DNA from: an uncultured bacterium
GTDB taxonomy: Bacteria; CAIJMQ01
DNA length: 13,209 nucleotides
NCBI GenBank assembly: GCA_964573245.1
Contig: CAZNJA010000026.1
Location: forward strand, 1-13,209
Direction: 5' to 3'
The stretch's first letter is position 1. Each line of letters starts with the position of its first letter. The position numbers and the translations under genes were made by a program. This document shows, one piece after another, positions 1 through 13,209 of the stretch. The notes beneath the pieces were generated by a model, which had not been told where the DNA came from, ran no database searches, and saw nothing but the letters and a program-made list of their open reading frames with translations.

Positions 1-2
1 GA

Positions 3-1172
3 CTGGCGAAACTGCAAAAAACAATGATAAATATGTATCTTGATAAGATGGGCGTTTATCAGAGCGAAATGGGGTTTCCATTTACGAATCACGAAATAAG
101 CTATATCAATGCCAATCTTGAACTTAAAAAAATGGGCGCTTTCAAATCGCTTATCCTTTCAGGATGGTCCAGACCTGTAATTAAAGATATAGAAAAATCG
201 CTGAAACTTACCAACGTTAAGGATATGAATATATCTGTATCTACTTCCAACCAGATGCTTGACAGTAAGTTTGGAGGCAAATATTCTAAAGACGACATAA
301 TCAGAATGATAACCGATGCCACACAGTTTGCTAAAAAAGAAGGCATTAAGGCAATAGGTGTAAATGCAGAAGACGCTTCCAGGTCTGATATGGATTTTCT
401 TGTGGATTTTATAATCGCTGCTAAGGAAGCCGGAGCGGACAGGTTCAGATACTGCGATACTTTGGGATATGACGACCCTTTCACAATCTATGAAAGAATA
501 TCGAAAATACTCAAAAAAGTTAAAATACCCATAGAACTTCATTGCCATAACGATTTGGGAATGGCTGTTGCAACTTCCATAGGTGGAGCAAAAGCGGCCA
601 TTGACAGCGGGGTAGATGCTTATATAAACACGACTGTCAACGGAATGGGCGAACGAGCGGGCAACGCAGATTTAATTTCCGTTATTTTGGCTGTGAAAAA
701 AGCCAGTGGGTTGCATGATAAATACGCGATGGACGACAATATAGATTTAAAAATGGCATGGAAAATTTCCAGATATGTATCCTATGCTTTTGGAGTTCCG
801 ATTCCCATCAATCAGCCGGGAGTGGGGGATAATGCTTTCGCGCACGAATCTGGCATTCATGTTGATGGCGCATTGAAAGATTCCAAAAACTATGAACTTT
901 ATCACTATGAAGAATTGGGCAGGGGAGAGCCGGAGATTATCGAGACCGGAAGAAAAATAACGGTCGGCGAATATAGCGGTATAAAGGGCTTCTGGAATGT
1001 TTACGGCAAATTGGAAATAGCATTCAAAGATGATAAAGAAGCAACGCAAATATTGGAACTTGTCAGATACGCAAATGTGCATACTCAAAAACCTCTAGTT
1101 GAAGACGAGTTGAAATTTATTGCCTCTTATCCTAAAATAGCAAAGCAGATTATGACGGTTACACCGCCATAG
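3..1172 (+). CDS. Homocitrate synthase / LeuA-family DRE-TIM acyltransferase (possibly Re-citrate synthase), 5'-truncated by the window edge
   Basis: Motifs NAEDASR, YCDTLG, ELHCHNDLGMAVA, TTVNGMGERAGNA and VGDNAFAHESGIHVDG. The frame is open upstream of ATG 24 (LAKLQKT-M) and the N-terminal D-x-T-x-R-D-G motif is missing, so the true start lies before position 1. No LeuA regulatory domain at the C-terminus. Substrate cannot be fixed from sequence. Confidence 0.88.
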   Translation: MAKLQKTMINMYLDKMGVYQSEMGFPFTNHEISYINANLELKKMGAFKSLILSGWSRPVIKDIEKSLKLTNVKDMNISVSTSNQMLDSKFGGKYSKDDIIRMITDATQFAKKEGIKAIGVNAEDASRSDMDFLVDFIIAAKEAGADRFRYCDTLGYDDPFTIYERISKILKKVKIPIELHCHNDLGMAVATSIGGAKAAIDSGVDAYINTTVNGMGERAGNADLISVILAVKKASGLHDKYAMDDNIDLKMAWKISRYVSYAFGVPIPINQPGVGDNAFAHESGIHVDGALKDSKNYELYHYEELGRGEPEIIETGRKITVGEYSGIKGFWNVYGKLEIAFKDDKEATQILELVRYANVHTQKPLVEDELKFIASYPKIAKQIMTVTPP

Positions 1173-1224
1173 TATTAAAAGAAGTAGCGAATAGAAAGTA
1201 GAGAGATACTAAATTTAAACAAAT

Positions 1225-2736
1225 ATGAAAAAGAGTTTTTTGAGTTTTGCATTAATTTTTTTGGTATTTTCCCTCTGTTCGGTGTCTGTTTTCTCGACCG
1301 TATTCGATTCTGAATCAGCCGATAAAGGATTAAAATCAGGAATTCTTTCGCTGAAAGTCGGCGATTACGATGATGCTTTGGGAAAATTTCAAAAGGTGCT
1401 GGATTTGGACCCCATAAATGCTGACGCTTGTTACTATTTAGGAATGACTTATTCTCAAATGGAAGATTCCAATGAAGCCGTTTCTTGCTATCAAAAAGCC
1501 TTAACATTGAATCCCGAATTAACAAAAACGCATTTTCAACTTGGCGTTGCTTATTATCAATTAGAACAATACGCCAACGCGTTAGAATCCTTGTCGCAAG
1601 CGGAAAAATATTCGCCGGAAGATGCCATGGTCTATTATTATCAAGGAGCATCATATTACGAACTTAAGAAATATTACAAAAGTACTCTTCCATTCAGTAA
1701 AATACGGGAGTTTGACTCCACCCTTAGCTCTTTTTCTTATTATTGGGAAGGTGTTGCTCTTTTTCAGCAAGGTTTATATAACAAAGCAAAATATTTCTTT
1801 CAAGAAGTAATTCGTCTATCGCCTGATTCCCAACTTAGCAGTTCTGCCAATGAATTCTTACAAGAAATACAAAAACAAACTAAACCCTTAAATTTCAATG
1901 CAGGTCTTGGCATAGAATATGATGACAATATTACTTTACAACCTGTTGATGAGGATGCTGCTGCGGATATATCTGACAAAGAGGATGAAAGAGCTGTTAT
2001 CAATTTAAAACTTACACATAGAACATTTGTAGAGCCCGGTGAATTCGGCGTTTCTTACGCTTTTTATCAATCCCTGCATCAGGATTTGACCGAGTATAAC
2101 ATTCAGGGGCATACTGGAACGCTGTATTTTGCTTCGAACTTGCGTCCTTTCCAACCCTCTATTCAATACGATTATAACTATTATTTTGTTGACAACGATG
2201 AGTATTTGGAAAAGCATACTCTTACTCCTTCTTTGAATATTTCCGTAGCATCGCCGCATATAACGCAAGTATATTTCCAATATGAAAAACTCAATTATCT
2301 TGTTTCTTTTGAAGAAGACGAATATGACAGGAGCGCTAATGTTAGTGCAATCGGTTTGAATCAGTTTTTTTCTATCATAGAAGATAAGGGTTATGTAAAA
2401 ATTGGTGCGGAATATAAAGGCAACGATGCAGAAGGCGATGACTGGGATTGTTCACGTTCCAAAATTTCGTTAAGCATATATTCGCCAACCCCGATTCCTA
2501 AAATGAATATGGAAATCGGCGGCGAGCAGTCAAACAGTAATTTTTACAATGAAGATTCATCTTTTGATAAGACAAGAAAAGATACAAATACAAGCGGATG
2601 GCTTGAATTTATATACAAATTGGACGAAAATTGGAGTGTGGCTCTAAATTATAAATACATAAATAACCGTTCCAACATAGATTTTTACGAATATAGAAGA
2701 AATATTACCTCGCTATTTTTAAGTTGTAACTTCTGA
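1225..2736 (+). CDS. TPR-repeat protein with C-terminal outer-membrane beta-barrel (SlipAM/DUF560-like)
   Basis: Signal peptide (MKKSFLSFALIFLVFSLCS...), about 5 TPR motifs (YYLGMTY, FQLGVAYY, YYQGASYY, YWEGVALF), then GIEYDDNI, alternating aromatic beta-strands and a terminal Phe (LFLSCNF). Confidence 0.85.
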   Translation: MKKSFLSFALIFLVFSLCSVSVFSTVFDSESADKGLKSGILSLKVGDYDDALGKFQKVLDLDPINADACYYLGMTYSQMEDSNEAVSCYQKALTLNPELTKTHFQLGVAYYQLEQYANALESLSQAEKYSPEDAMVYYYQGASYYELKKYYKSTLPFSKIREFDSTLSSFSYYWEGVALFQQGLYNKAKYFFQEVIRLSPDSQLSSSANEFLQEIQKQTKPLNFNAGLGIEYDDNITLQPVDEDAAADISDKEDERAVINLKLTHRTFVEPGEFGVSYAFYQSLHQDLTEYNIQGHTGTLYFASNLRPFQPSIQYDYNYYFVDNDEYLEKHTLTPSLNISVASPHITQVYFQYEKLNYLVSFEEDEYDRSANVSAIGLNQFFSIIEDKGYVKIGAEYKGNDAEGDDWDCSRSKISLSIYSPTPIPKMNMEIGGEQSNSNFYNEDSSFDKTRKDTNTSGWLEFIYKLDENWSVALNYKYINNRSNIDFYEYRRNITSLFLSCNF

Positions 2737-2781
2737 GTTAATGATTACATAGATTAAAAAAGTATAATAGAGAGAGAAAAA

Positions 2782-3612
2782 ATGAATAAAAATCTGTTAA
2801 AAATAGTTTTTGCAGGTGTTTTACTAATCGCAAGCGCCTCCGTTTCTTTATATGCCCAGGAAGCGGTCGGCAAAGTTATTTCCTTGGAAGGCATAGTAGA
2901 GGCACGACTTAATGAAAGCGGAGCGTGGAGAACATTAAGCGGGAAAAGCGATATTTACGAAAAAGATACGATTAAAACAGGCGAAAATTCCAAAGTGAAT
3001 ATTTTCTTCGTTGACGAAACGAATGTGTCCGTAGGTCCCGAAACGACTATAAAGATAGAAAAACTTTTTTGTTCTCCTGCACAAAACCATCGCGAAGGCA
3101 AATTAAGTGTTATTGCCGGGAAAGCAAGGTTTGATGTGGGAAAACTTTTTTCTAAAGATTCGTCTTTTGAAGTCCGTACGCCTACGGCAGTAGCGGGCGT
3201 CAAAGGAACAAGTTTTATCGTTCATGTAACATCCGAACAGATGACGCAACTAATCGGTTTAAGCGGTGTCGTGACCATAACAAGTATTTCGCCCGAAATC
3301 GGAGGCGAAATGCTTTTGACAAGCGGCTTTATTATATCGGTTGAAGACGGCGCGCCGCCGGGCGACCCGATACCTATAAGTTTTGATGAACTATTGGATT
3401 TGCTGCAAAGTTTAGGACTCATTAATGGGGGAGATGATAGGGGAGGCGGCACAGGAAATACCGGAGGAAATGCATTGAGAAATCTTGGCCCGATTACTCC
3501 ACCGGGCGGGCAAACCAATATAATTGACCAGCCCATAGAAACAAAACCGGGGGATTTACCGGAACCGCCGCCGCCGCCTAATGGTGATGGAGAATCCGGG
3601 GGGACTATCTAA
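2782..3612 (+). CDS. Secreted/periplasmic FecR-domain protein with Gly/Pro-rich tail
   Basis: Signal peptide ending LYA-QE; FecR motifs DTIKTGENSKVNIFFVDET..VGPET and FEVRTPTAVAGVKGTSF; tail PEPPPPPNGDGESGG. Confidence 0.88.
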   Translation: MNKNLLKIVFAGVLLIASASVSLYAQEAVGKVISLEGIVEARLNESGAWRTLSGKSDIYEKDTIKTGENSKVNIFFVDETNVSVGPETTIKIEKLFCSPAQNHREGKLSVIAGKARFDVGKLFSKDSSFEVRTPTAVAGVKGTSFIVHVTSEQMTQLIGLSGVVTITSISPEIGGEMLLTSGFIISVEDGAPPGDPIPISFDELLDLLQSLGLINGGDDRGGGTGNTGGNALRNLGPITPPGGQTNIIDQPIETKPGDLPEPPPPPNGDGESGGTI

Positions 3613-3626
3613 AGAGTCGTAAGTAG

Positions 3627-3656
3627 TCGACAGGTGAAAAGGGGTTATGGTATAGT
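3627..3656 (+). promoter_or_regulatory. Putative sigma70 promoter for the C11 protease gene
   Basis: TCGACA (3627-3632), 18-bp spacer, TATAGT (3651-3656) with an extended -10 TG at 3648-3649; RBS GAGGA just upstream of ATG 3680. Confidence 0.5.
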
Positions 3657-3679
3657 AAGCTCTAAATTAGAGGATAAGC

Positions 3680-6577
3680 ATGTATAAAAAAATAAATTTA
3701 TTTTTAATAGTGTTTTTTCTGTTTTTATCAATTCTTTTCTCTGCAAGTATCTTGGCTGCTGAATACGAATCAGAGGCCTGGTCTCAAAACTGGAATACTG
3801 GAACCCAATATATGGTTCAATTCAAAGTTGAAGACCCGAGTCATGATGCCATTTCCGTAGAGATCGCAGGCCCTGGGATTGAGGTTTTGAGTCTTGACTA
3901 TGACGTTAACGAAAACAATTGGAATTCTTGGTGGAATAGCAAAAGTTTAGATTTTGGAGGTTCTCCACCAACACCACCGCTTGAGTATACATTTACTATC
4001 GTCGACTCTCTTGGTACAACAATTGAGACTGATACGGTAGAAAGGTTTGTTGAGGTATCTGCTACTGATCTTTCACCAATAGAGACTGTAACCGGTCCGC
4101 TGGTGGTTTTTTCATGGACGGGAGTTGAACTAGGCTACTCCCACACCTACGCGGTTGAACTTAATGATGCAGAGAGTACCCGTATATGGAATGTTTATGG
4201 GTTGGTCGATACATCGGTAAATTATGACGGTCCAGCACTGACTTCCGGGGCAGAATACTCCTATGACGTAGTAGTGGTAGATGAATACGGAAATCAGTCG
4301 TTTGCCGGCGGGAGTTTTATATATCAGACAGGAGAGTCCGAATGGCTTTTTATGGTGTATATGGCTGGCGATAATGATTTGGAAGATGACCTTATTGGCG
4401 ATTTTCTGGAGATGGCTGAAGTGGGCTCCAGCGATACGGTTAATTTAGTAGTTCAGTTGGATAGAATTGATGGCGGATATAGCGGATATGGTAATTGGAC
4501 TGATGCACGTCGAGGTCTTGTAGTTAAAAACAGTGAGCCACACACGTCCTGGGGGGAAAGTATCGGAGAAGTAGATATGGGAGATACTCAAACTTTAGTT
4601 AATTTTGTTGAGTGGGCTGTTTCCAATTATGGTGCTCCTAACATTGCTCTTATATTCTCAAACCATGGCGATGGCTGGAGAAGCAGAATTGAGGAACTAA
4701 GAAGTTTGTTAGCGGCAAAAAGCAGCGAACTTTCCTTGAGTGAAAGAGATAATATAATTAGAGAAATAGGAATTCTTGAGAGTAAACTTGAGAGTGAAGA
4801 AGGTCTTTTGAAAGCAGTATGTTCGGATGATACGGATGAAGATGTGCTCTATACAAACGAGGTAGGAGAGGCTTTGAATTATTTATATGTATATGGAGCA
4901 GCAGGGTATGGAATAGATATTAATCTCGTAGGTTTTGATGCGTGCCTTATGGGTATGCTTGAAGTTGCACATGAGATAAAGGGTTATGTTGCATATGGTA
5001 ATTCTGTAATGGTGGCTTCCGAGAAAAGCGAGCCGCTTGCCGGATGGCCTTATAATACAATACTTTCGGATTTGACTGATTCTCCGATTATGGATGTTTA
5101 TAATTTAGCCGAGACGATAGTAAACAGATACGGAGAATATTATGTCGGTTCTATTTATGGCGACCAAACTCTTTCAGCAGTAAATCTTAGCGCGTACGCT
5201 GTGGAAAGGGCTGAAGCTCCCCCCGGTGGTGTAAACGTTCTTTCGGCTGCTGTTAGTAATTTTGCTGATACAGTAATTACACAAAATACTGATTGGGATG
5301 TAATATACGAGGCAAAACAACAGGCAGGATATTACAGTTATTCTTATTACAGAGATTTAAGAGGGTTCATGGAGGGTGTTGTGTTGCATGCAAGAAATGA
5401 AGCAATTAGAACAGCTGCTTTTAGTGTTATAGTTGCGCTTGACAGTTGTATAGTTGCTAATCACAGCTCTTTTGCTGATGGGGGTAACGGTTTATCTATA
5501 TATTTTGCGGATTGGCAGGGAACCGTAGATGCTGATTATAATGCTGCAACTCTTCTTTTTGCTGCCGATACTTCATGGGACGAGTTTCTTGCTGCGTATG
5601 TAGGTGCTCCTCTTGTTGGGGAGCAACCCGAATCGTATGAATATTCCAGAGAAGTTCCTGCTTCGCAATATGTTATGGTTTCTTCTCCCGTAACACCAAG
5701 CAATTCAGACCCTGTAGTAAATCTTCAGGATGATTTGGGAAATTATGATAAAACTGTATGGCGGTTATTTAGATGGAATTCTCTTTCGGCGATATATAGA
5801 GAATATCCTTTCTACGGCCAGGAAGTTATTCCCGGAAAAGGATACTGGCTTATTTCCAAAGATGCAAAAAATATTGATATATATGGCGTTCCGGAAGATA
5901 CTACCTTTCCTTTCTGTATTCCTCTTTATCCGGGTTGGAACCAGATCGGAAATCCGTTTGATTTTGATATTGACTGGGATTATGTTTATGTATTACAGTT
6001 GAAACCGCCTTATGCTTATTACTATGTAACTTCTTCTGAAAACATCCTAACTTATAAAACACTCTGGAGATATAGTAATGGAGGATATAGTGCTGCCGCT
6101 ACTATGGTGTCGGGTGAAGGATACTGGGTCAAAAACCTTACCGCAGATTGGGTTTATCTTGTTGTTATTCCGGCTGAATCACAATTGGAAAAAGAAAATA
6201 TAGTTTTATTGGAATCTCTTCTTACAGGATTTGGAAGCTCAGAAGAAAGCCCTCCTGCTCCACCTGATAGTAACGGTGATGAAGTGAGTGAATCTTCAGA
6301 TGGAGGCAGCGGCGGCGGAAGCGGGTGTTTTATCGCCACGGCGAGTTTCGGTTCGCCGATGGCAGGAGAAGTCGACATTTTAAGAAATTTCAGGGATAAA
6401 TATTTATTGTCCAATCCGATCGGACAACTTTTCGTTTCCACATATTACAGATATTCTCCCAAAGTTGCGGATTTCATAGCAAAACATAATTTCTTGAAAG
6501 TTTTGGTCAGGTCCACTTTATATCCTCTAGTTAAAGGATGTGGAGTCTTAGACGAAACCCCGTACCGTTCCGAATAA
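3680..6577 (+). CDS. Secreted clostripain-family (peptidase C11) protein with N-terminal Ig/FN3-like region and CFI-box-CTERM tail
   Basis: Signal peptide; WLFMVYMAGDNDLE, NLVVQLDR, EVDMGD; catalytic His in LIFSNHGDGW (4664-4666) and Cys in GFDACLMG (4943-4945); MVASE, GWPY, TLSAV, GLSIYF. A duplicated PGKGYW/GEGYW module is followed by a Gly/Ser linker and GCFIATASFGS...LRNFRDKYL...YYRYSP. Confidence 0.88.
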   Translation: MYKKINLFLIVFFLFLSILFSASILAAEYESEAWSQNWNTGTQYMVQFKVEDPSHDAISVEIAGPGIEVLSLDYDVNENNWNSWWNSKSLDFGGSPPTPPLEYTFTIVDSLGTTIETDTVERFVEVSATDLSPIETVTGPLVVFSWTGVELGYSHTYAVELNDAESTRIWNVYGLVDTSVNYDGPALTSGAEYSYDVVVVDEYGNQSFAGGSFIYQTGESEWLFMVYMAGDNDLEDDLIGDFLEMAEVGSSDTVNLVVQLDRIDGGYSGYGNWTDARRGLVVKNSEPHTSWGESIGEVDMGDTQTLVNFVEWAVSNYGAPNIALIFSNHGDGWRSRIEELRSLLAAKSSELSLSERDNIIREIGILESKLESEEGLLKAVCSDDTDEDVLYTNEVGEALNYLYVYGAAGYGIDINLVGFDACLMGMLEVAHEIKGYVAYGNSVMVASEKSEPLAGWPYNTILSDLTDSPIMDVYNLAETIVNRYGEYYVGSIYGDQTLSAVNLSAYAVERAEAPPGGVNVLSAAVSNFADTVITQNTDWDVIYEAKQQAGYYSYSYYRDLRGFMEGVVLHARNEAIRTAAFSVIVALDSCIVANHSSFADGGNGLSIYFADWQGTVDADYNAATLLFAADTSWDEFLAAYVGAPLVGEQPESYEYSREVPASQYVMVSSPVTPSNSDPVVNLQDDLGNYDKTVWRLFRWNSLSAIYREYPFYGQEVIPGKGYWLISKDAKNIDIYGVPEDTTFPFCIPLYPGWNQIGNPFDFDIDWDYVYVLQLKPPYAYYYVTSSENILTYKTLWRYSNGGYSAAATMVSGEGYWVKNLTADWVYLVVIPAESQLEKENIVLLESLLTGFGSSEESPPAPPDSNGDEVSESSDGGSGGGSGCFIATASFGSPMAGEVDILRNFRDKYLLSNPIGQLFVSTYYRYSPKVADFIAKHNFLKVLVRSTLYPLVKGCGVLDETPYRSE

Positions 6578-6612
6578 GGGACTGGTGCGCGTAAACTGAC
6601 TATAGAAGATTA

Positions 6613-6718
6613 ACCCCTACACCAATTTCTTTAAGTATTTCCCCTCACACAATTGAATAGTAGGATGAAGATTTAGTATACTGATAAATATCAAAACTAT
6701 AACAATTGGTGTGGGGGT
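6613..6718. repeat. 15-bp inverted repeat pair flanking the cyclase promoter region
   Basis: ACCCCTACACCAATT (6613-6627) versus AATTGGTGTGGGGGT (6704-6718), 14/15 complementary; a third degenerate copy CCCCTCACACAATT at 6641-6654. Confidence 0.75.
6653..6682 (+). promoter_or_regulatory. Putative sigma70 promoter for the cyclase gene
   Basis: TTGAAT (6653-6658), 18-bp spacer, TATACT (6677-6682), about 40 bp upstream of the TTG start. Confidence 0.5.
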
Positions 6719-6721
6719 AAA

Positions 6722-8965
6722 TTGAAAAGACTCCGTTTAATCAATTCATATACCATCGGCTTTTTTACCATTGCAGTAATCATTTTCCTTTATTTTATCC
6801 CGATAGATTTCATCGCCCAACTTGAACTTAAAACACTTGATTTAAGATTTAGGACTTTTCAGAAAACAGTTCCCTCACAAAATATCGTTATTGTTACCAT
6901 AGACAACAAATCCGAAGATAAAATCGGACAATTCCCGTGGCCCAGAGACACATACGCAAAAGTTATAGATAACTTGAGCAGGTGGGGTGCGAAAGTTATC
7001 GGCATCGATGTTCTTTTTTCCGAGAAAGAAAATAATCCATTATTGGAAGTCCTTGATAAGACGGATTTAGAAGAAAGAGTCTCTGCAGGTCTTATAGAAG
7101 AATATCAGAAACAATTCGATAGCGATAAACTACTGGCAGATTCCATTAAGAGAGCGGGCAATGTAGTGCTTGGGTATTATTTTTTTACAGAGGGCGACGA
7201 ACAGGTAAAACACCTTACTGAGGCGGAAAAACAAAAGGCAGAAAAAATAATTTTGAAAGGTATGATTCCTTTGGTAAGGTCCAAAGTTAAAGATAATGAA
7301 GAGTTTCTGGTCAGAAGGGGTTATGGGATAGAAACAAGTATAGAGAGTATATCGCGTGCTTGTAAAAATTACGGATTCCTGAACATATTTCCGGATTCAG
7401 ACGGAGTATTAAGAAAAGTAACACTGCCGATGAAATATGAATATGAAAAGGATTGGTATGGTTCGTTTCCTTTACAGATATTGAAAAATTATTTTGATGA
7501 GAATATACAACTTGAAGTTTCATCGGAAGGCATATCAGCTCTTACTTTGGGAGAAAAAAATATTCCCATTGATACAAGCGGAGCGATGCTTCTTGACCAG
7601 AGTGCTTCACTTGATTCTTTCCCTACCTATTCATTCGTCGATGTTATGGATGGCACAGTTGATAGCCCGGCGAAATTCAAAGATAAAATCGTCCTTATCG
7701 GCATAACAGACCCCGGTCTTATGAGGGATACATGGGCTACACCGACTGATACTGTGGTTGCGGGTATAAAAATACATGCTCAAACCATATATACGATACT
7801 TAATAATTGGTTCATGTCTTATTCGCGTACACTTATAAGTAATGTTCATCCCAACACAATCCTAAAAGATGAATTTGTATATTATTCTGATGAAGTAAAT
7901 CTTGCCAACATTTTAACCATAATCTTATTGGGTGGAATACTTGTACTTGCTATCCCGAAATTTGCTCATGCAAGTTATGGCGCTTACACAGCTATTTTAT
8001 TGCTTGTCGGTTATAGTTTAGCAGCCTTCCTTCTGTTAAAAAATATGCGGTTGTGGCTTAATATGGTTTATCCTATTTCAAGTATTGCCCTTGTTTACAC
8101 AACTGAAACTTTATACAGAGCATTGACTACAGAACGAAAGGCGCGCGAAATACGGGGAGCTTTCCAGACATATGTTCCTCCTCAAATTGTCGATGAACTT
8201 ATAAAGAATCCGGAAAAATTGAAGCTGGGCGGAGAAAGAAAAACTGTTTCTATACTTTATTCGGATGTAAAGGGTTTTACGACTATCTCGGAGAAGCTTT
8301 CTCCCGAAGAACTTGTAGAATTTATGAATAATTATCTTACGCCTATGAGCGATATAGTATTTAAATATGAAGGGACGCTGGACAAATATATAGGGGATGC
8401 GGTTTTGGCTTTTTACGGGGCGCCGCTTCTGCAGGAAGACCATCATTTAAGAGTTGTCCTTTCCGCGTTGGATATGATAAGCGCCCTAAAGAAATTGCGG
8501 AAAAAATTAAAGGAGCAAAACAAACCCTCAATAGATATAGGAATCGGCATAAATACGGGCGAAGTATCCGTGGGGAACATGGGTTCTAAGACACGGCTTG
8601 ACTATACGATAATGGGAGATAACGTAAATCTCACGCAGCGCATAGAAGAATTGACCCGAATATATAAAAACAATATATTGCTAAGCGAATTTACTTATCG
8701 GGAAATAAAAGAACAAATCCTTTGCAGAGAGATTGACGAAGTTACGGTAAGGGGAAGAACGCAAGGTGTAAAGATTTATGAACCGATTTGCAGAATGGAA
8801 GAAAAAACGGCAGAAACCGAGGAAATCGTCAAGCATTTCGAAACGGGACTTAGTTTATATAGGGCTAAAAATTTTTCCGAAGCTGAAAAAGAATTTGAGG
8901 AAGTGTTGAAACTTGCACCTGAAGATGGCCCGAGTAAGTATTATTTGGAGAAGGGTAAGAAATGA
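6722..8965 (+). CDS. CHASE2-domain class III adenylate cyclase with C-terminal TPR-like helices
   Basis: N-terminal TM; CHASE2 motifs IVIVTID, GQFPWPR, GAKVIGIDVLFSE, PDSDGVLR, FKDKIVLIG, GIKIHA; three TM helices; cyclase motifs LYSDVKGFT, DKYIGDA (Lys indicates ATP specificity), GIGINTG, GNMGS..RLDYT.MGDNVN..QR. TTG start with a GGGGG RBS. Confidence 0.93.
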   Translation: MKRLRLINSYTIGFFTIAVIIFLYFIPIDFIAQLELKTLDLRFRTFQKTVPSQNIVIVTIDNKSEDKIGQFPWPRDTYAKVIDNLSRWGAKVIGIDVLFSEKENNPLLEVLDKTDLEERVSAGLIEEYQKQFDSDKLLADSIKRAGNVVLGYYFFTEGDEQVKHLTEAEKQKAEKIILKGMIPLVRSKVKDNEEFLVRRGYGIETSIESISRACKNYGFLNIFPDSDGVLRKVTLPMKYEYEKDWYGSFPLQILKNYFDENIQLEVSSEGISALTLGEKNIPIDTSGAMLLDQSASLDSFPTYSFVDVMDGTVDSPAKFKDKIVLIGITDPGLMRDTWATPTDTVVAGIKIHAQTIYTILNNWFMSYSRTLISNVHPNTILKDEFVYYSDEVNLANILTIILLGGILVLAIPKFAHASYGAYTAILLLVGYSLAAFLLLKNMRLWLNMVYPISSIALVYTTETLYRALTTERKAREIRGAFQTYVPPQIVDELIKNPEKLKLGGERKTVSILYSDVKGFTTISEKLSPEELVEFMNNYLTPMSDIVFKYEGTLDKYIGDAVLAFYGAPLLQEDHHLRVVLSALDMISALKKLRKKLKEQNKPSIDIGIGINTGEVSVGNMGSKTRLDYTIMGDNVNLTQRIEELTRIYKNNILLSEFTYREIKEQILCREIDEVTVRGRTQGVKIYEPICRMEEKTAETEEIVKHFETGLSLYRAKNFSEAEKEFEEVLKLAPEDGPSKYYLEKGKK

Positions 8966-8998
8966 TGCTGGATACTAGATACCAGATTCTAGATACTA
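8964..8998. repeat. Degenerate heptamer tandem repeat (5 x GATACTA-like)
   Basis: GATGCTG GATACTA GATACCA GATTCTA GATACTA, overlapping the cyclase stop codon. Confidence 0.8.
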
Positions 8999-9031
8999 GT
9001 AAAAGCGACTGTTCAATGATGTATGTTAGCC
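8998..9031 (+). repeat. 34-bp direct repeat copy 1; putative attI-like cassette integration site (core GTTAGCC 9025-9031)
   Basis: AGTAAAAGCGACTGTTCAATGATGTATGTTAGCC, 31/34 identical to 11708-11741. It ends in a GTTRRRY core exactly complementary to the R'' (GGCTAAC) of the next attC. No hairpin, so it is not an attC. Confidence 0.7.
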
Positions 9032-9044
9032 AATAAAGGAAACA

Positions 9045-10064
9045 ATGACTACTTCTCGGAATGATATTTCTAAACTGATAGAGAGAATCCAGAAAAACAA
9101 TTCCATTCTGGATTCGATAAAGCCGTCTTTATTCGAGAGTGTTGTTGCGGAGGCAATCACTCGTAACAACCAATTGATAGAGATAAGCAAGAATGCAACC
9201 GAAAGTTTAGACTTTATAGGAAAGTACAAAGATCAATTTGACAAAATAAATTCTTTTGCAATTGAGACAAAACAATTTCAAAAAGCTGTTGAAGCCGCGC
9301 AAATTCATTCACTAGCTGCTAAAGCTTCTCAGCTTAACATTGACAAGAGCTATCTAATAACTAACTCCAAATTTACTAGTGCAGCTTTAGAGGCTGCTGC
9401 GTCGTATAAATCGCAACTAGAATTGATAGATCGTTCAGGTTTGAATACCCTTATCGAACAATACCGAGTTGATAGGGAGCTATTTTCTAATTCTATCGCG
9501 GCGCATATTTCGGCTCTTGAATCAAGAAGAATATTGACTCTTGATGATCCAGATCCAAACGTCATAGATGCGATAAATCTAGAAGAACTAGAAATAGCTG
9601 AAGATGAAAAATCATCTTTAATAATTGTTGATCGTTTGCCTCTTCGGCTACTATCAAAAATCTTAAGAAGTCCATCTGAAGTAAGGAATATTACTCCTCG
9701 TCAGTTTGAAGAATTTATCGCAAAGTTATTGAGTGAACTTGGTTTCAATAACGTAATCCTTACACCGAGATCGGGTGATGGTGGTAAAGATGTTATCGCA
9801 AGTCATAGCGTACAAGGCATTCCACTAACGTTTTACTTTGAGTGCAAGAAATATGCAGAAGGCAATAAGATTCAATTAGACACAATGCGATCACTACTGG
9901 GAACAGTGGCCCATGATTCCAGAGAGGTAAATAAAGGCATACTGGTCACAACATCAACCTTTACCAAAGGTTGTAAGGAGTTCATCTTGGCAGAGTCAAG
10001 AGTGGATGGAAAGGACTATGATGGGGTGTTGGGCTGGGTAGATGAAATACGTAAAGAAATTTAA
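9045..10064 (+). CDS. Mrr-like restriction endonuclease (C-terminal Mrr_cat PD-(D/E)xK domain) with helical N-terminal region; cassette gene
   Basis: ITPRQFEEFIAKLLSELGF, TPRSGDGGKDVIA, FECKKY, GILVTTSTFT; RBS AAAGGA at 9035-9040. Confidence 0.88.
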   Translation: MTTSRNDISKLIERIQKNNSILDSIKPSLFESVVAEAITRNNQLIEISKNATESLDFIGKYKDQFDKINSFAIETKQFQKAVEAAQIHSLAAKASQLNIDKSYLITNSKFTSAALEAAASYKSQLELIDRSGLNTLIEQYRVDRELFSNSIAAHISALESRRILTLDDPDPNVIDAINLEELEIAEDEKSSLIIVDRLPLRLLSKILRSPSEVRNITPRQFEEFIAKLLSELGFNNVILTPRSGDGGKDVIASHSVQGIPLTFYFECKKYAEGNKIQLDTMRSLLGTVAHDSREVNKGILVTTSTFTKGCKEFILAESRVDGKDYDGVLGWVDEIRKEI

Positions 10065-10070
10065 ATTAAT

Positions 10071-10158
10071 GGCTAACAAGGCAAATGCACTCGGACGGTA
10101 AAAAGCGCCGCTCGTTCCTCGCTTTGCTTTTTTCTGCCGGTGATGCGTGGCGTTAGAC
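10071..10158 (+). other. attC site 1 (88 bp)
   Basis: R'' GGCTAAC (10071-10077) to R' GTTAGAC (10152-10158); imperfect palindrome GCACTCGGACGGTAAAAAGC / GCTTTTTTCTGCCGGTGATGC; begins 7 bp after the Mrr stop. Confidence 0.9.
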
Positions 10159-10187
10159 CTAAATGGTTAAATAGGAGAGTAAATTTA

Positions 10188-10691
10188 ATGGGATATAATA
10201 AAATTAGTAAAATCTGGCCCAATAATACTGAATACTTTTTTAGGGATTATAATTTAAAGCCATTAAAACAAAAAGGAACTTATTGCGTTTCAACATCGTT
10301 GGCAATAATTACTGGTGAAACTCCAGAATATTTTCAGAAATTAATTAATACTCAAGACTCAATATCATGGTCAGAAGCTTTACGTAAATTTAACATGAAA
10401 CTTGCTTATTGTCCCGTCGATATAAGAAAAATTAAATTCTATATTAACGAATTAATAGCGTTGGACGATTTATTTTTATTGTCATATTATTCCCCAATTG
10501 GCGAAGAAATTCTTAAAGATCCTGATCATAATGGCTGGTTAGTAAGTTCACATATTGTAGTTTTACATAGGAGTATTATCTTAGACTCTAAGAGCGGAAA
10601 TATTTCACATGCACTAAAACATGAATGTAACTCACATCATACAAAACGAACTTTTAGAGTTATACCTTTAAATCATTCTAGGGGATTATAA
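10188..10691 (+). CDS. Hypothetical protein, probable papain-fold (peptidase C39-like) Cys-His-Asp enzyme, 167 aa
   Basis: Start moved to ATG 10188 (RBS AGGAG 10173-10177), because the GTG at 10140 lies inside the attC. Motifs KQKGTYCVSTSLAII and SHIVVL...ILD. Confidence 0.6.
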   Translation: MGYNKISKIWPNNTEYFFRDYNLKPLKQKGTYCVSTSLAIITGETPEYFQKLINTQDSISWSEALRKFNMKLAYCPVDIRKIKFYINELIALDDLFLLSYYSPIGEEILKDPDHNGWLVSSHIVVLHRSIILDSKSGNISHALKHECNSHHTKRTFRVIPLNHSRGL

Positions 10692-10736
10692 TTTTGATAA
10701 TTACGATACAAATAAATTAACAGGAGAAGATCATAA

Positions 10737-11573
10737 ATGGCTAAAGAAATATCTTGGTCAGACGTAAGTTCTAAATTTCGAGAAGTCTTTCCTGACAAAA
10801 AACCGGATAAATGGCGTATTATTCATTTGCTTTTCCATAATCATTTAACTAAATCTGGTGATATTCAAAGAACAGTTGAGATTTGTCTTGAATCTAATAT
10901 TGATAGTTTAACAGAATATGAATGGAGAATTCCATTGCCTGTGCCAAAGCAAAATAAAGTCCATGGATTATCTATTCGTGATGCATCAGGTGAATTGCTC
11001 GAATATGAATTAAGTTATTATAAAAAGGATGGAACTGTTGAAATTAATAATCCTGATTTTGCACTATTAAAAATCTTCTTTAATCCAATTAACAAGGGTA
11101 ATAAAAGAACGATAAAGTTTGGATATTTTATTGAAAATTATACAACCATATTAAGCAAGGGGGTTTTCAGTAGCTTGTGGAAATATTCATGGAGCTATAG
11201 AATCCATAGTGAGACAAGGAAGTTTGAATATCGAGTTATAATTCCTCAAAAATGTAAAATAATAAAAAATGGTTTTTCTACAAATATGCCAAGTCCTCCT
11301 TTTAGTTTTAGCTATGGTGAAAAGGAAACTATGATTTGGATGGCTGATAATCCTAGTACTGGTGATTTTATTGGAGAAGTAAGATATAAGCAAGAATCTC
11401 CAATAGGGTTGAATACTGTTAGTTTAGCGAGTGGAGCTTTTATTGGTGCATTAACGAGTTTATTTACAAGCCCCCAATCATTGTATGCTACTATCTTAAT
11501 ATTTCTTATTCCAATAGTGGTTGTATTTGGAACTATAAATTTGGCTAAAATATTATTACCCTCTCAAAAATGA
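10737..11573 (+). CDS. Hypothetical protein with beta-rich soluble domain and two C-terminal transmembrane helices
   Basis: 278-aa ORF with AGGAG upstream; hydrophobic segments TVSLASGAFIGALTSLF and LYATILIFLIPIVVVFGTINLA; no signal peptide. Confidence 0.75.
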   Translation: MAKEISWSDVSSKFREVFPDKKPDKWRIIHLLFHNHLTKSGDIQRTVEICLESNIDSLTEYEWRIPLPVPKQNKVHGLSIRDASGELLEYELSYYKKDGTVEINNPDFALLKIFFNPINKGNKRTIKFGYFIENYTTILSKGVFSSLWKYSWSYRIHSETRKFEYRVIIPQKCKIIKNGFSTNMPSPPFSFSYGEKETMIWMADNPSTGDFIGEVRYKQESPIGLNTVSLASGAFIGALTSLFTSPQSLYATILIFLIPIVVVFGTINLAKILLPSQK

Positions 11574-11623
11574 GTTAAAACGTGTAAATAAAAGAGAAAT
11601 TAAGTAAAGAAATTAAGGGTCAG

Positions 11624-11664
11624 GTCTCCCTCCTCTGATTTCTCCGAAATCAAGAAGAGGGGAC
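11624..11664 (+). other. Imperfect hairpin (terminator-like, REP-like or decayed attC)
   Basis: GTCTCCCTCCTCTGATTTC-TCC-GAAATCAAGAAGAGGGGAC; perfect inner stem TGATTTC/GAAATCA; no poly-T tail. Confidence 0.55.
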
Positions 11665-11673
11665 TTCGCAAAA

Positions 11674-11701
11674 TTGACAGAATAGAGTTATCTGTTATTA
11701 T
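11674..11701 (+). promoter_or_regulatory. Near-consensus sigma70 promoter (Pc-like) upstream of the second cassette sub-array
   Basis: TTGACA (11674-11679), 16-bp spacer, TATTAT (11696-11701) with an extended -10 TG at 11693-11694; predicted start site near 11708. Confidence 0.65.
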
Positions 11702-11707
11702 AAACAA

Positions 11708-11741
11708 AGTAAGAGTGACTGTTCAATGATGTGTGTTAGCC
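11708..11741 (+). repeat. 34-bp direct repeat copy 2; putative attI-like site (core GTTAGCC 11735-11741)
   Basis: AGTAAGAGTGACTGTTCAATGATGTGTGTTAGCC; the core is complementary to R'' GGCTAAC at 12338-12344. Confidence 0.7.
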
Positions 11742-11760
11742 CTTAAAATGAGAAAAAAAA

Positions 11761-12333
11761 TTGGTAGCTAAAAAATCATCCCCTGCCCGAAAAAATTCGA
11801 AACAATCCCGTTCTCCAAGCTCCAAAATACTTATGAGAAAGTACCGGTATTTTAATCGTAAAATTGAGCGTCTTTGGAGTAAAAGGCAAAGGATTGAATC
11901 TATTTTATATATGGGCATATTGATTGAATATTTGGTGAAGGAATCTATTTTCCTCTTTGAAAAAATTGTTGAGGGAGCTTCTTACAGAGCGAAGGTTGGA
12001 TTCAATCCACGAAACCTTTGCAGCAAAAAGGACATTGAAAATCAACCCCTAGGTTATTTGATAATGATTCTTAATACTTACACAAAAGATAAAATTCTAA
12101 TTCGAGATTTAAAAAAGTTTTCAAAAAAGAGAAATGACATTATTCATAAACTTTTCTTTCAAGATATTAGTAAGGTTAATAAACAATTAAAAGATTTTAA
12201 CGTTTTCTTTTATGAACTCATGATTATGTTGTTAAAACTTTTAATTAGCTTAGAGAACCACGTAAAAAAAGAATTTGTTTATGTTTGTGATGACTGCTTT
12301 AAGGATATAAATCATACTTGTATTAAATTATGA
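11761..12333 (+). CDS. Hypothetical HEPN-like protein (Rx4H motif); cassette gene
   Basis: All-helical appearance; ILIEYLVK, PLGYLI and KKRNDIIH (R-x4-H). Start codon uncertain (TTG 11761). Confidence 0.62.
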   Translation: MVAKKSSPARKNSKQSRSPSSKILMRKYRYFNRKIERLWSKRQRIESILYMGILIEYLVKESIFLFEKIVEGASYRAKVGFNPRNLCSKKDIENQPLGYLIMILNTYTKDKILIRDLKKFSKKRNDIIHKLFFQDISKVNKQLKDFNVFFYELMIMLLKLLISLENHVKKEFVYVCDDCFKDINHTCIKL

Positions 12334-12337
12334 AATT

Positions 12338-12410
12338 GGCTAACAAGGCGCTCCACCTGACTTTTTCCGCGACTTCGCCGCTCCAAAAGGCAGCTGATTT
12401 TGTGTTAGGC
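12338..12410 (+). other. attC site 2 (73 bp)
   Basis: R'' GGCTAAC (12338-12344) to R' GTTAGGC (12404-12410); arms CACCTGACTTTT / AAAAGGCAGCTG. Confidence 0.88.
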
Positions 12411-12420
12411 ACAGGAGATT

Positions 12421-12999
12421 ATGACTTACAAGAAATTTGTTCCGATTAAAGAGCTCGCTAAAGGGCATTGTCTTGCGGTCGAGAACGCTTATCGCTTGGT
12501 TCAAGATGGAGAGGTGTTGTTAAATGGCCAGCGCTATTTGAGCGCAATTAATCTATTTCGCCTCGCCTGCGAAGAACTCGCTAAAGCCCATATCATTACA
12601 CAGGCAATTTGTTATTCGGAAGACGATGAGAAACAATGGGATTGGTTCTGGTTTGCTTTCAGCGACCACCGTGAAAAGCTCAGGATCTTAGAGTATGAAT
12701 TTCATTGGAAGGGCTATAAGGCCAAAGATGAATTTCATCGTCGAGTCAACCTCTTGAGGCAGCAGAGAGAGGACACCTTGTATGTTGGCCTCGATGCCAA
12801 CGCGAATCAATTTCAGAAGGCTGGCACCTTGGTTGGTGAAGAAAAGGACTTTGCTGAAGTCGAGTATCGTTACGTCCTTAGACTTATGAAGTTTTTCCTT
12901 TCTACCGGCGGCCTCCCTACCCCTGACATTATGGAAGATGCTTATACCAATATGGCAAAGAAATTCTGGGCGAAAAAAAAGGCATCTGTGGGTGACTAA
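12421..12999 (+). CDS. abiV: AbiV-family abortive infection protein (HEPN_AbiV); cassette gene
   Basis: ENAYRLVQDGEVLL...YLSAINLFRLACEELAKA, FSDHREKL and RQQREDTLYV fit the AbiV pattern (NA..L..DA..L, A.EE.GK, H..K, R...LYV); RBS AGGAG 12413-12417. Confidence 0.82.
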   Translation: MTYKKFVPIKELAKGHCLAVENAYRLVQDGEVLLNGQRYLSAINLFRLACEELAKAHIITQAICYSEDDEKQWDWFWFAFSDHREKLRILEYEFHWKGYKAKDEFHRRVNLLRQQREDTLYVGLDANANQFQKAGTLVGEEKDFAEVEYRYVLRLMKFFLSTGGLPTPDIMEDAYTNMAKKFWAKKKASVGD

Positions 13000-13069
13000 C
13001 AAGTCGTTGCAACCGACGCCCACCACCCGCTTCGCGGTCGGCGGGCGCAGCTGAACTCTAACGTTAGAG
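12994..13069 (+). other. attC site 3 (76 bp)
   Basis: R'' GACTAAC (12994-13000) overlaps the abiV TAA stop; R' GTTAGAG (13063-13069); arms CAACCGACGCCCACCACCCGC-TTC-GCGGTCGGCGGGCGCAGCTG. Confidence 0.9.
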
Positions 13070-13081
13070 GAAAAGTTTGAG

Positions 13082-13165
13082 ATGGTAGATTCCATTAAAG
13101 CAAGGATTGAAACAATTACATTCTCTTCAGATACACAGCAAGAGACTTCACTATTTCCCCGATAA
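13082..13165 (+). pseudogene. Short ORF, probably the truncated 5' end of a further cassette gene (MVDSIKARIETITFSSDTQQETSLFPR)
   Basis: ATG 13 bp after attC3, the usual cassette gene position, but it stops after 27 codons and no attC follows. Confidence 0.4.
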
Positions 13166-13178
13166 TAGTTTCACTTAA

Positions 13179-13208
13179 TTGACACCCTGTATAAAACTAA
13201 CTTAAAAT
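13179..13208 (+). promoter_or_regulatory. Putative sigma70 promoter pointing out of the window
   Basis: TTGACA (13179-13184), 18-bp spacer, TAAAAT (13203-13208). Confidence 0.5.
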
Positions 13209-13209
13209 A

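Follow-up and report, generated by a model that had tools for sequence, protein, structure and literature searches.

A classical integron has a single attI site and a single promoter; its distal cassettes are silent and new cassettes have one point of entry. The question raised by the locus described here is how a cassette array should be read in which a 34-bp, attI-like sequence occurs twice, each time in front of a different gene. The array lies in a stretch of DNA of 13,209 nucleotides from an uncultured bacterium (assembly GCA_964573245.1, contig CAZNJA010000026.1), referred to below as the window. The window comprises bases 1-13,209 of a 17,889-base scaffold in which a run of N begins at 13210, so the array possibly extends past the visible end of the window. 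The source genome (G000) is a metagenome-assembled genome (MAG) of 1.46 Mb in 110 contigs, 93% complete and with 38% G+C. It is compared here with its two best-assembled congeners, G002, which is assembled in 10 contigs, and G003, and with individual loci or contigs of metagenomes or genomes, which carry L-numbers. Most likely, the repeat forms the core at which recombination takes place in the attI site of a class of chromosomal integrons that is specific to this lineage of small-genome uncultivated bacteria. The module to which the repeat belongs is taken to be attI because its copies join different cassettes at G|TT, because each cassette start complements its own attC, and because the module adjoins a divergent intI gene in the locus L097.

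The direct repeat occupies 8998-9031 and 11708-11741, with 31 of 34 positions identical and the copies 2710 bp apart, as a first-pass annotation of the sequence had described it. A repeat search of the window extends the pair to 8998-9037 and 11708-11747. The 25-mer that ends in GTTAGCC is found twice in the window (0.00 expected in 200 shuffles) and twice in the whole 1.46-Mb genome, both times on the forward strand, while a backwards control has 0 matches. A profile search of G000 with nhmmer likewise returns these two copies only. GTTAGCC closes both copies, at 9025-9031 and 11735-11741, and GGCTAAC opens the next downstream attC after each of them, at 10071 and 12338. Both parts of this correspondence had been pointed out before and both are found as described. 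Folding of the two copies relative to shuffled sequence gives z = +0.47 and +0.84, so that neither forms a hairpin beyond chance, again in agreement with the annotation, and the attC covariance model described below has no match on either copy. The arrangement is not an assembly chimera, since the metagenome contig L048, which was assembled separately, carries both copies and the DNA between them, an 11-nt indel being its sole difference from the window.

The repeat is the core of a module of about 68 nt, of which about 30 distinct copies are present in relatives and metagenomes. The first part of the module is a predicted sigma-70-type promoter (TTGACR, 17 nt, TAYCWT, often with TG in front), the second is a leader of about 30 nt that ends in ACTGTTCAATGRTRTRTGTT, and the third is the core, in which a 7-nt spacer separates the left box GTTCAAT, of the RYYYAAC type, from the right box G|TT. 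When 22 non-redundant copies are aligned, little or no variation is seen at the positions ACTGTTCAATG and TGTT. The consensus of these copies reads "..tgaac..A.TaA..GtaACTGTTCAATGaT.TaTGTT", with none after GTT. The core is better conserved than the promoter hexamers, which are kept in most copies, and its 7-nt spacer shows purine transitions. Conservation is bounded to the 68 nt or so at both ends. Judged from its sequence, the core looks like a double-stranded simple site in which a RYYYAAC-type box faces a GTTRRRY-type box, and presumably it resembles the L and R boxes of attI1. The promoter of the module would act as the cassette promoter, Pc. The first-pass annotation had taken the conserved 28 bp to the left of the crossover for an attI-type site. 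The identity holds, while the size has to be revised, since the unit is the promoter-attI module of about 68 nt and copy 1 is a truncated version of it.

Both copies in the window lie on the plus strand. Copy 2 (11675-11737; nhmmer 50.6 bits, E 2e-13) is complete, with promoter, leader and core GTTCAAT-N7-GTT. Its crossover falls between G11735 and T11736, and GGCTAAC at 12338 complements the junction GTTAGCC found there. The predicted promoter, TTGACA-16-TATTAT with TG in front (11674-11701), scores 11/12 and is the joint best in the region; transcription from it would be expected to start about 7 nt past 11701, whereas copy 1 would be silent or depend on read-through. Copy 1 (8997-9027; 25.4 bits, E 1.7e-5) is without the promoter half, and about 31 nt of it are left (profile positions 42-72), with the same core GTTCAAT-N7-GTT. 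Its crossover falls between G9025 and T9026, and here it is GGCTAAC at 10071 that complements the junction GTTAGCC. Since a dispersed short repeat segment occupies 8960-9006, in place of the promoter half, copy 1 is regarded as a truncated remnant. This segment has blastn-short matches on 12 other G000 contigs, on both strands, and the stretch 8971-9005 is present in metagenome contigs with different flanks. The dispersed repeat is made of CTAGATAC-like units, and in metagenome contigs the same 35 nt are one arm of an inverted repeat. A TCTAACGGGGT-type motif, which surfaced during a scan for attC-like words, also recurs across G000 (for example in contigs C5, C7, C48, C50, C55 and C79) and possibly represents a further type of dispersed repeat.

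With up to three mismatches allowed, a search of the family finds two copies of the module in G002 and two in G003; a three-mismatch match in a further genome (G001) is spurious and represents no real copy. The scan of metagenomes gives 35 loci, of which about half are chance matches and the rest show the conservation over about 68 nt. The chance matches, which also make up about half of the 19 matches in genome contigs, are recognized by the absence of upstream conservation; among them are the motif matches in L024 and L052, which lie inside a Xer-like gene that is not IntI (79 bits). A scan of species-representative genomes adds real module copies in five further genomes (G009-G013). Counted by locus, there are two copies in the window, two in G002, three in G003 (on two contigs), three within 4.2 kb in L051, and two each in L053, L032 and L047. 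Across 13 module-bearing loci, every one of the 26 attC matches has the same orientation as the module. Each copy of the module precedes a different cassette, and several copies per array are usual in this lineage. The proposal that such arrays have multiple attI sites is thus upheld, and the search for further copies with different cassettes that had been suggested as its check has yielded the 30 or so copies described here, joined to their cassettes at G|TT. In L047, a degenerate further attI copy lies at about 2170-2205 (reverse strand), with a remnant of the 3' end of a cyclase gene before it. It is located beyond the sequence equivalent to the right flank of the window, so the L047 array runs beyond the point that matches the window's gap.

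The position of the crossover can be read from the junctions. If a cassette has entered at G|TT, the word at the junction should recur as its reverse complement at the start (R'') of that cassette's own attC. This reverse complement was sought in the 2 kb downstream of each copy and in the regions downstream of the other copies, for the 18 copies that have at least 600 nt downstream (the degenerate L047 copy at 2205 was left out). The junction 7-mer is present downstream of its own copy in 13 of 18 cases, and in 28 of 300 downstream regions of other copies; for the 8-mer the corresponding figures are 11 of 18 and 11 of 306. Another 14 copies come from G009, G010, G012 and G014. Seven of these have a downstream attC detected by the model, and all seven match at 7-9 of 9 bases, two of them being metagenome loci already counted among the 18; for the other seven, at most 1,500 nt of downstream sequence are available, and only 122 nt in L097. 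One cassette is found in two contexts: in L046 an attC precedes it, and in G002 module copy 2 does. From GTT on, the two are identical at 123 of 123 nt, and in the 40 nt before GTT they are identical at 10. In metagenome contigs the cores of the attC at 10071-10158 and 12338-12410 are also joined to other flanks, as expected for shared attC types.

The attC sites of the array have inverse cores (RYYYAAC...GTTRRRY), paired L boxes with a bulge, and a variable loop. The covariance model for these sites is built from 15 seed sites, two from the window and 13 from relatives, which remain of a 17-sequence alignment after the misaligned rows w1 and L030 are removed; the site at 10071-10158 is outside the seed. 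In the consensus hairpin, compensatory changes are seen in eight of the 14 pairs, and one base of the L helix bulges out. In G000 the model has exactly three matches, all in the window, at 10071-10158, 12338-12410 and 12994-13069 (30.8-58.1 bits), and it recovers non-seed sites in G002, G003 and G009-G013. The bottom strand of the site at 12994-13069 folds at -19.9 kcal/mol (z = -3.86). Earlier scans for attC, by inverse-core words with folding or by regular expressions, were too unspecific and gave hundreds of matches. G002 has a second small attC cluster (L066, G002:C11:194001-206000) with two sites and no copy of the attI module, which opens at the apparent 3' half of a truncated attC.

Integron integrase genes are found in two module-bearing relatives. 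In L097, which belongs to the genome G014, an open reading frame at 294-1526 on the plus strand encodes an IntI that scores 409 bits on TIGR02249 (cut-off 265) over model positions 4-314. On the minus strand, a module copy spans 178 to 123 (nhmmer E 2.2e-8) and reads away from intI, whose first possible start, at 294, is about 100 nt away. This is the canonical arrangement of intI and Pc-attI, with the two divergent. A copy beside intI had been named as a check on the attI proposal, and L097 supplies it, outside this window and genome. In G009 there are six copies of the 16-nt core and an intI gene of 384.6 bits that is cut by the contig end; its nearest relative is the L097/G014 gene, with 89% identity. 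Both genomes are roughly class-level relatives of the source genome: one housekeeping protein is 68-70% identical to that of G000, compared with 72% for a genome of the "same class".

Several observations weigh against this interpretation. As the first-pass annotation had noted for the neighbourhood of the repeat, an integrase is missing: no IntI is found on the window contig, in G000, G002 or G003, in five genomes of the order, or in nine genomes assigned to the phylum. The adjacency of module and intI is seen for one copy only, in L097. Both G014 and G009 are MAGs whose kinship to G000 is based on the one protein, and the G009 intI lies on a 3.6-kb contig that could be mis-binned. The exact 7-mer fails in five of the 18 copies of the junction test, and RRRY is often not what follows G|TT (CGCA, CGGT and TGGC are examples). 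Joints left by excision or deletion of cassettes are absent from four metagenome runs, in which the contigs are of low depth only. Since the seed attC sites were picked by means of the junction rule, only the non-seed matches are independent of it. Lastly, the flanks of the locus are only 82-86% identical between species, so the turnover of cassettes need not be recent.

G000, G002 and G003 have two tyrosine-recombinase (PF00589) genes each, xerC and xerD. In G000 these are above the XerC/XerD cut-offs and reach 136 and 141 bits on TIGR02249, with the central stretch of that model missing; values of about 81 and 77 bits are also given for the best matches of G000 to this model, all of them below its cut-off of 265. 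A tblastn search with the two Xer proteins finds no recombinase in the module-bearing loci examined. The G002 locus is complete within a 234-kb contig and has no adjoining intI, so the loss of intI from the locus is real in at least G002. With three attC within 10071-13069 and no integron integrase nearby, the window has what is asked of a CALIN, the name for clustered attC sites without an integron integrase (two or more attC, with no integron integrase encoded close by). Since the genome encodes no integron integrase, the array is formally a CALIN that has kept its attI sites. The cassettes of G000 may still move, with an integrase supplied in trans, on an unbinned replicon or in an unassembled gap, or the array may be a relic. 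The loss of intI with a frozen array and an integrase acting in trans are equally compatible with the data. That the module is a site bound and recombined by IntI in this organism is a prediction drawn from its sequence.

Bounded by a cyclase gene on the left and a conserved flank on the right, the window contains a single continuous array, and not two mini-arrays as had been proposed. From left to right it consists of the truncated attI copy 1, a Mrr cassette, a unit with two genes, a hairpin and the promoter-attI module, a cassette with a gene of unknown family, an AbiV cassette and the right flank, all on the plus strand. The left flank is a CHASE2 adenylate/guanylate cyclase gene at 6722-8965 (Pfam CHASE2 1.3e-56, Guanylate_cyc 6.3e-25), which takes the position that intI has in a classical integron; its stop codon at 8965 confirms that copy 1 abuts an adenylate cyclase gene, as previously noted. 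Cassette 1 (9026-10152) has a Mrr-type restriction endonuclease gene at 9045-10064 (Pfam Mrr_cat 1.9e-36; PADLOC PDC-S02, mREase_IV) and the attC at 10071-10158 (30.8 bits). The contig L048 equals the window from 8437 to 12613 except for the absence of 9667-9677 (11 nt), a loss that would shift the frame of the Mrr-type gene just ahead of its nuclease domain; short-read contigs likewise break at 9672/9678.

The unit that follows (10153-11735) has the form attC-genes-attI. It contains genes at 10188-10691 and 10737-11573, neither with a Pfam or PADLOC family, and a hairpin at about 11615-11660, and the complete promoter-attI module replaces its attC; the attC model has no match between 10158 and 12338. 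Since it opens at the G|TT of the attC at 10071-10158 and closes in module copy 2, it is by definition a delta-attI-type cassette. Cassette 3 (11736-12404) has a gene at 11761-12333 without a Pfam match and the attC at 12338-12410 (42.3 bits). Cassette 4 (12405-13063) has an AbiV-type HEPN gene at 12421-12999 (Pfam HEPN_AbiV 5.9e-16) and the attC at 12994-13069 (58.1 bits). The right flank (13070-13209) is conserved, with 92% identity to G002 (window 13098-13209) and 81% to L047. It has a promoter-like site at 13179-13208 (11/12) directed toward a downstream histidine-kinase gene, and the scaffold gap comes next. One short-read contig extends 1,458 nt beyond the end of the window.

The locus is in the same place in the congener. 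The window and G002 have a common upstream gene order (HMGL-type synthase, TPR, FecR, C11 peptidase, cyclase). In G002 the cyclase gene is followed by a module copy, three cassettes, a unit that ends in a second module copy, two cassettes and the right flank, and a module copy directly after the cyclase gene is also found in G003, L046, L047 and L051. The flanks are conserved between species, yet the arrays of G000, G002 and G003 have no cassette in common.

These features can be accounted for by the following scheme. An integron integrase would insert circular cassettes by recombination of attI with attC at G|TT, and the last four bases of the right box would come from the incoming cassette. 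The similarity between module copies would end at G|TT, and each cassette would open with the complement of the start of its own attC, because of such attI x attC recombination at that point. An internal copy of the module could have arisen when a segment with attI at its end left the array as a circle and was inserted again at an attC, as has been proposed for delta-attI-type cassettes; unequal exchange would be an alternative origin. By either route, an internal attI would give the distal cassettes their own promoter and a second point of entry.

How the internal copies arose is less certain than what they are. Only 33-194 nt of gene-free DNA separate some internal modules from the attC before them (G003, L053 and L051), the distance being just 163-194 nt in L053 and L051, and this short spacing would fit a small mobile promoter-attI unit. 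It is accordingly possible, and suggested here with some reserve, that attI and promoter together form a module that is itself mobile and is spread by the integrase through the arrays, sometimes without a gene, with the integrase supplied in trans by co-resident relatives or mobile elements, so that the integron would be distributed and partly communal. If this is the case, long arrays would be cut, in genomes of about 1.4 Mb, into sub-arrays that are transcribed independently and have separate points of entry, and the modules would persist and go on taking up cassettes where intI has been lost.

A rather unlikely alternative is that attI is real, while the second copy is due to segmental duplication or unequal homologous exchange of the 3' end of the cyclase gene with its attI, and the arrays are frozen relics left after the loss of intI. 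In G002 and L047 the internal copies are indeed preceded by remnants of the cyclase 3' end (75 nt, 25 codons, with 84% identity in G002), which would fit derivation from the primary site either by secondary-site recombination or by unequal exchange. The left edges of the homologous internal modules L051 copy 3 and G002 copy 2 also lie off any G|TT crossover, and both the missing intI of G000, G002 and G003 and the missing joints in low-depth metagenome contigs are what frozen arrays would show. On the other hand, the internal unit of the window begins exactly at the G|TT of the attC at 10071-10158, and the modules that lie 33-194 nt after an attC in L053, L051 and G003 have no cyclase remnant. 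The cassette found both after an attC and after a module argues for site-specific exchange at this site, and the six copies that accompany intI in G009 speak against simple duplication and decay.

Two further explanations are highly improbable. In the first, the block would be merely a shared promoter with its 5' leader, a signal of a defence-gene regulon, and the cassettes would have come to lie behind it by chance insertion of the attG type and been selected for expression. The block does hold a near-consensus promoter, and IntI can insert at short GWT sites throughout a genome, hotspots from which attI may derive according to the study of attG sites (10.1101/2022.09.11.507474). However, the roughly 30 distinct copies all break at the same base, the core and not the promoter hexamers is the most conserved part of the module, copy 1 keeps its 31-nt core and a cassette at G|TT even though it has no promoter, and in L097 the block occupies the canonical attI position beside intI. 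In the second, which is about as doubtful, another recombinase would turn over the cassettes in genomes without integrase, either XerC/XerD or IS200-like Y1 transposases. XerC and XerD are the sole tyrosine recombinases of G000, G002 and G003, cassette content is wholly different between congeners, and Y1_Tnp genes lie within the arrays of G003 and L051. Against this, the attC sites have the canonical IntI architecture, a true IntI adjoins the module in L097, and Y1_Tnp is absent from the whole G002 genome. The original proposal had itself named as objections a truncated attC, of which the repeat would be the 3' half, and an insertion sequence end, to which the end of a miniature inverted-repeat transposable element can be added. 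The GTTRRRY-like core that closes the repeat, as in an attC, speaks for such an origin, yet it hardly merits consideration, because the repeat does not fold or match the attC model, its upstream part is a conserved promoter and not a left-hand attC box, all copies are oriented as the attC sites are with no inverted partner copies found, and no transposase is associated with the module, whose conservation stops at both sides of the 68 nt.

As an attI site, the module has much in common with attI1, attI2, attI3 and VchattIA. It lies at the head of an array, its crossover is at G|TT in a 7-bp core with cassette-derived distal bases, it forms no hairpin, it has a predicted cassette promoter beside it, and in L097 it is divergent from intI. 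It differs from the characterised sites in its lineage-specific sequence, in its number of two to six copies per genome, and in the lack of intI in this genome, and its box layout, GTTCAAT-N7-GTT, is read from conservation only.

The closest parallel to the unit at 10153-11735 is provided by the delta-attI-type cassettes of class 1 and class 2 mobile integrons, which have the form attC-ORF-attI, with an open reading frame (ORF) between the two sites (Partridge 2009, cited in Gonzales Machuca et al. 2026, PMC12901181). According to the latter article, IntI1 is able to excise and insert such units, the attI remnants in them are mostly 14-18 nt long, with one of 244 nt and one complete attI1 of 65 bp, and the cassettes are rare, with 96 in 1,685 class 1 integrons, on mobile resistance integrons. 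In both systems a piece of attI replaces the attC of a unit inside the array. In contrast to what is described there, the units found here carry a whole module of 63-68 nt with its promoter, occur in most of the arrays seen, and are chromosomal, in genomes without intI.

CALINs (Cury et al. 2016, PMC4889954) are similar to the window in that it has three attC and no intI nearby or in the genome. Unlike them, the window has kept attI and promoter, in two copies, and its locus is syntenic across species. The attG sites of Loot et al. (10.1101/2022.09.11.507474) are numerous and share only GWT. They resemble the module in being double-stranded, non-attC targets with a short G-W-T crossover motif, and they offer a possible route to isolated cassettes in integron-free genomes; the module differs in that 17-31 nt are conserved in about 30 copies and in that a relative has it together with intI.

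Each of these elements (CALINs, attI sites, attG sites and delta-attI cassettes) has thus been described before (PMC4889954, 10.1101/2022.09.11.507474, PMC12901181). According to PMC4889954, only a handful of integron classes have a known attI, and the attI of the others lie beyond what current software can look for. The literature searched, with the supplementary tables of PMC12901181 outside the search, describes neither chromosomal arrays with multiple attI sites nor integrons of this lineage. What appears to be new is that, for an uncultivated lineage with small genomes, attI and likely Pc can be defined, to the crossover base, as predictions from sequence. New as well are complete promoter-bearing attI modules that recur regularly in chromosomal arrays and are kept in genomes without intI. 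Attachment sites with their promoter can therefore be scattered through cassette arrays, and arrays studded with such modules would alter the dynamics of both expression and capture. The delta-attI-type idea, tied to rare oddities of clinical integrons, would then also cover something that chromosomal arrays show regularly. At least some "CALINs" would keep a functional-looking platform minus the enzyme, which bears on the question of whether they are relics or receive an integrase in trans.

The cassettes seen are largely of defence type (Mrr, AbiV, another HEPN protein and an HNH nuclease). Those of relatives include a HEPN protein of the pEK499_p136 type (L013 3808-4290, 1.9e-34) and an HNH endonuclease (L012 12123-12641, 7.3e-14). 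Genes for Y1_Tnp (IS200-like, Pfam 4.3e-16) lie inside or beside arrays at L013 3020-3706 (G003:C31), at G003:C33:31060-31383 and near the 3' end of L051; a search of the G002 genome finds no such gene. In L046, between the cyclase stop codon and the attI module (about 700-886), there is a fragment of about 50 codons that corresponds to the 5' end of the histidine-kinase gene normally found after the array, which hints at an older duplication or insertion at the locus. A match of the window to an Rfam snoRNA is due to chance. The right flank contains one stretch of 39 nt (13075-13113) similar to a CRISPR direct repeat (Rfam CRISPR-DR7, 29.6 bits, under the gathering score of 37). Two units similar to it, 73 nt apart, are found on G000 contig C5 at about 18001-18107, where no array is seen, and in G002 and L047 the right-flank copy of this stretch is interrupted by a palindromic insertion of 32 nt.

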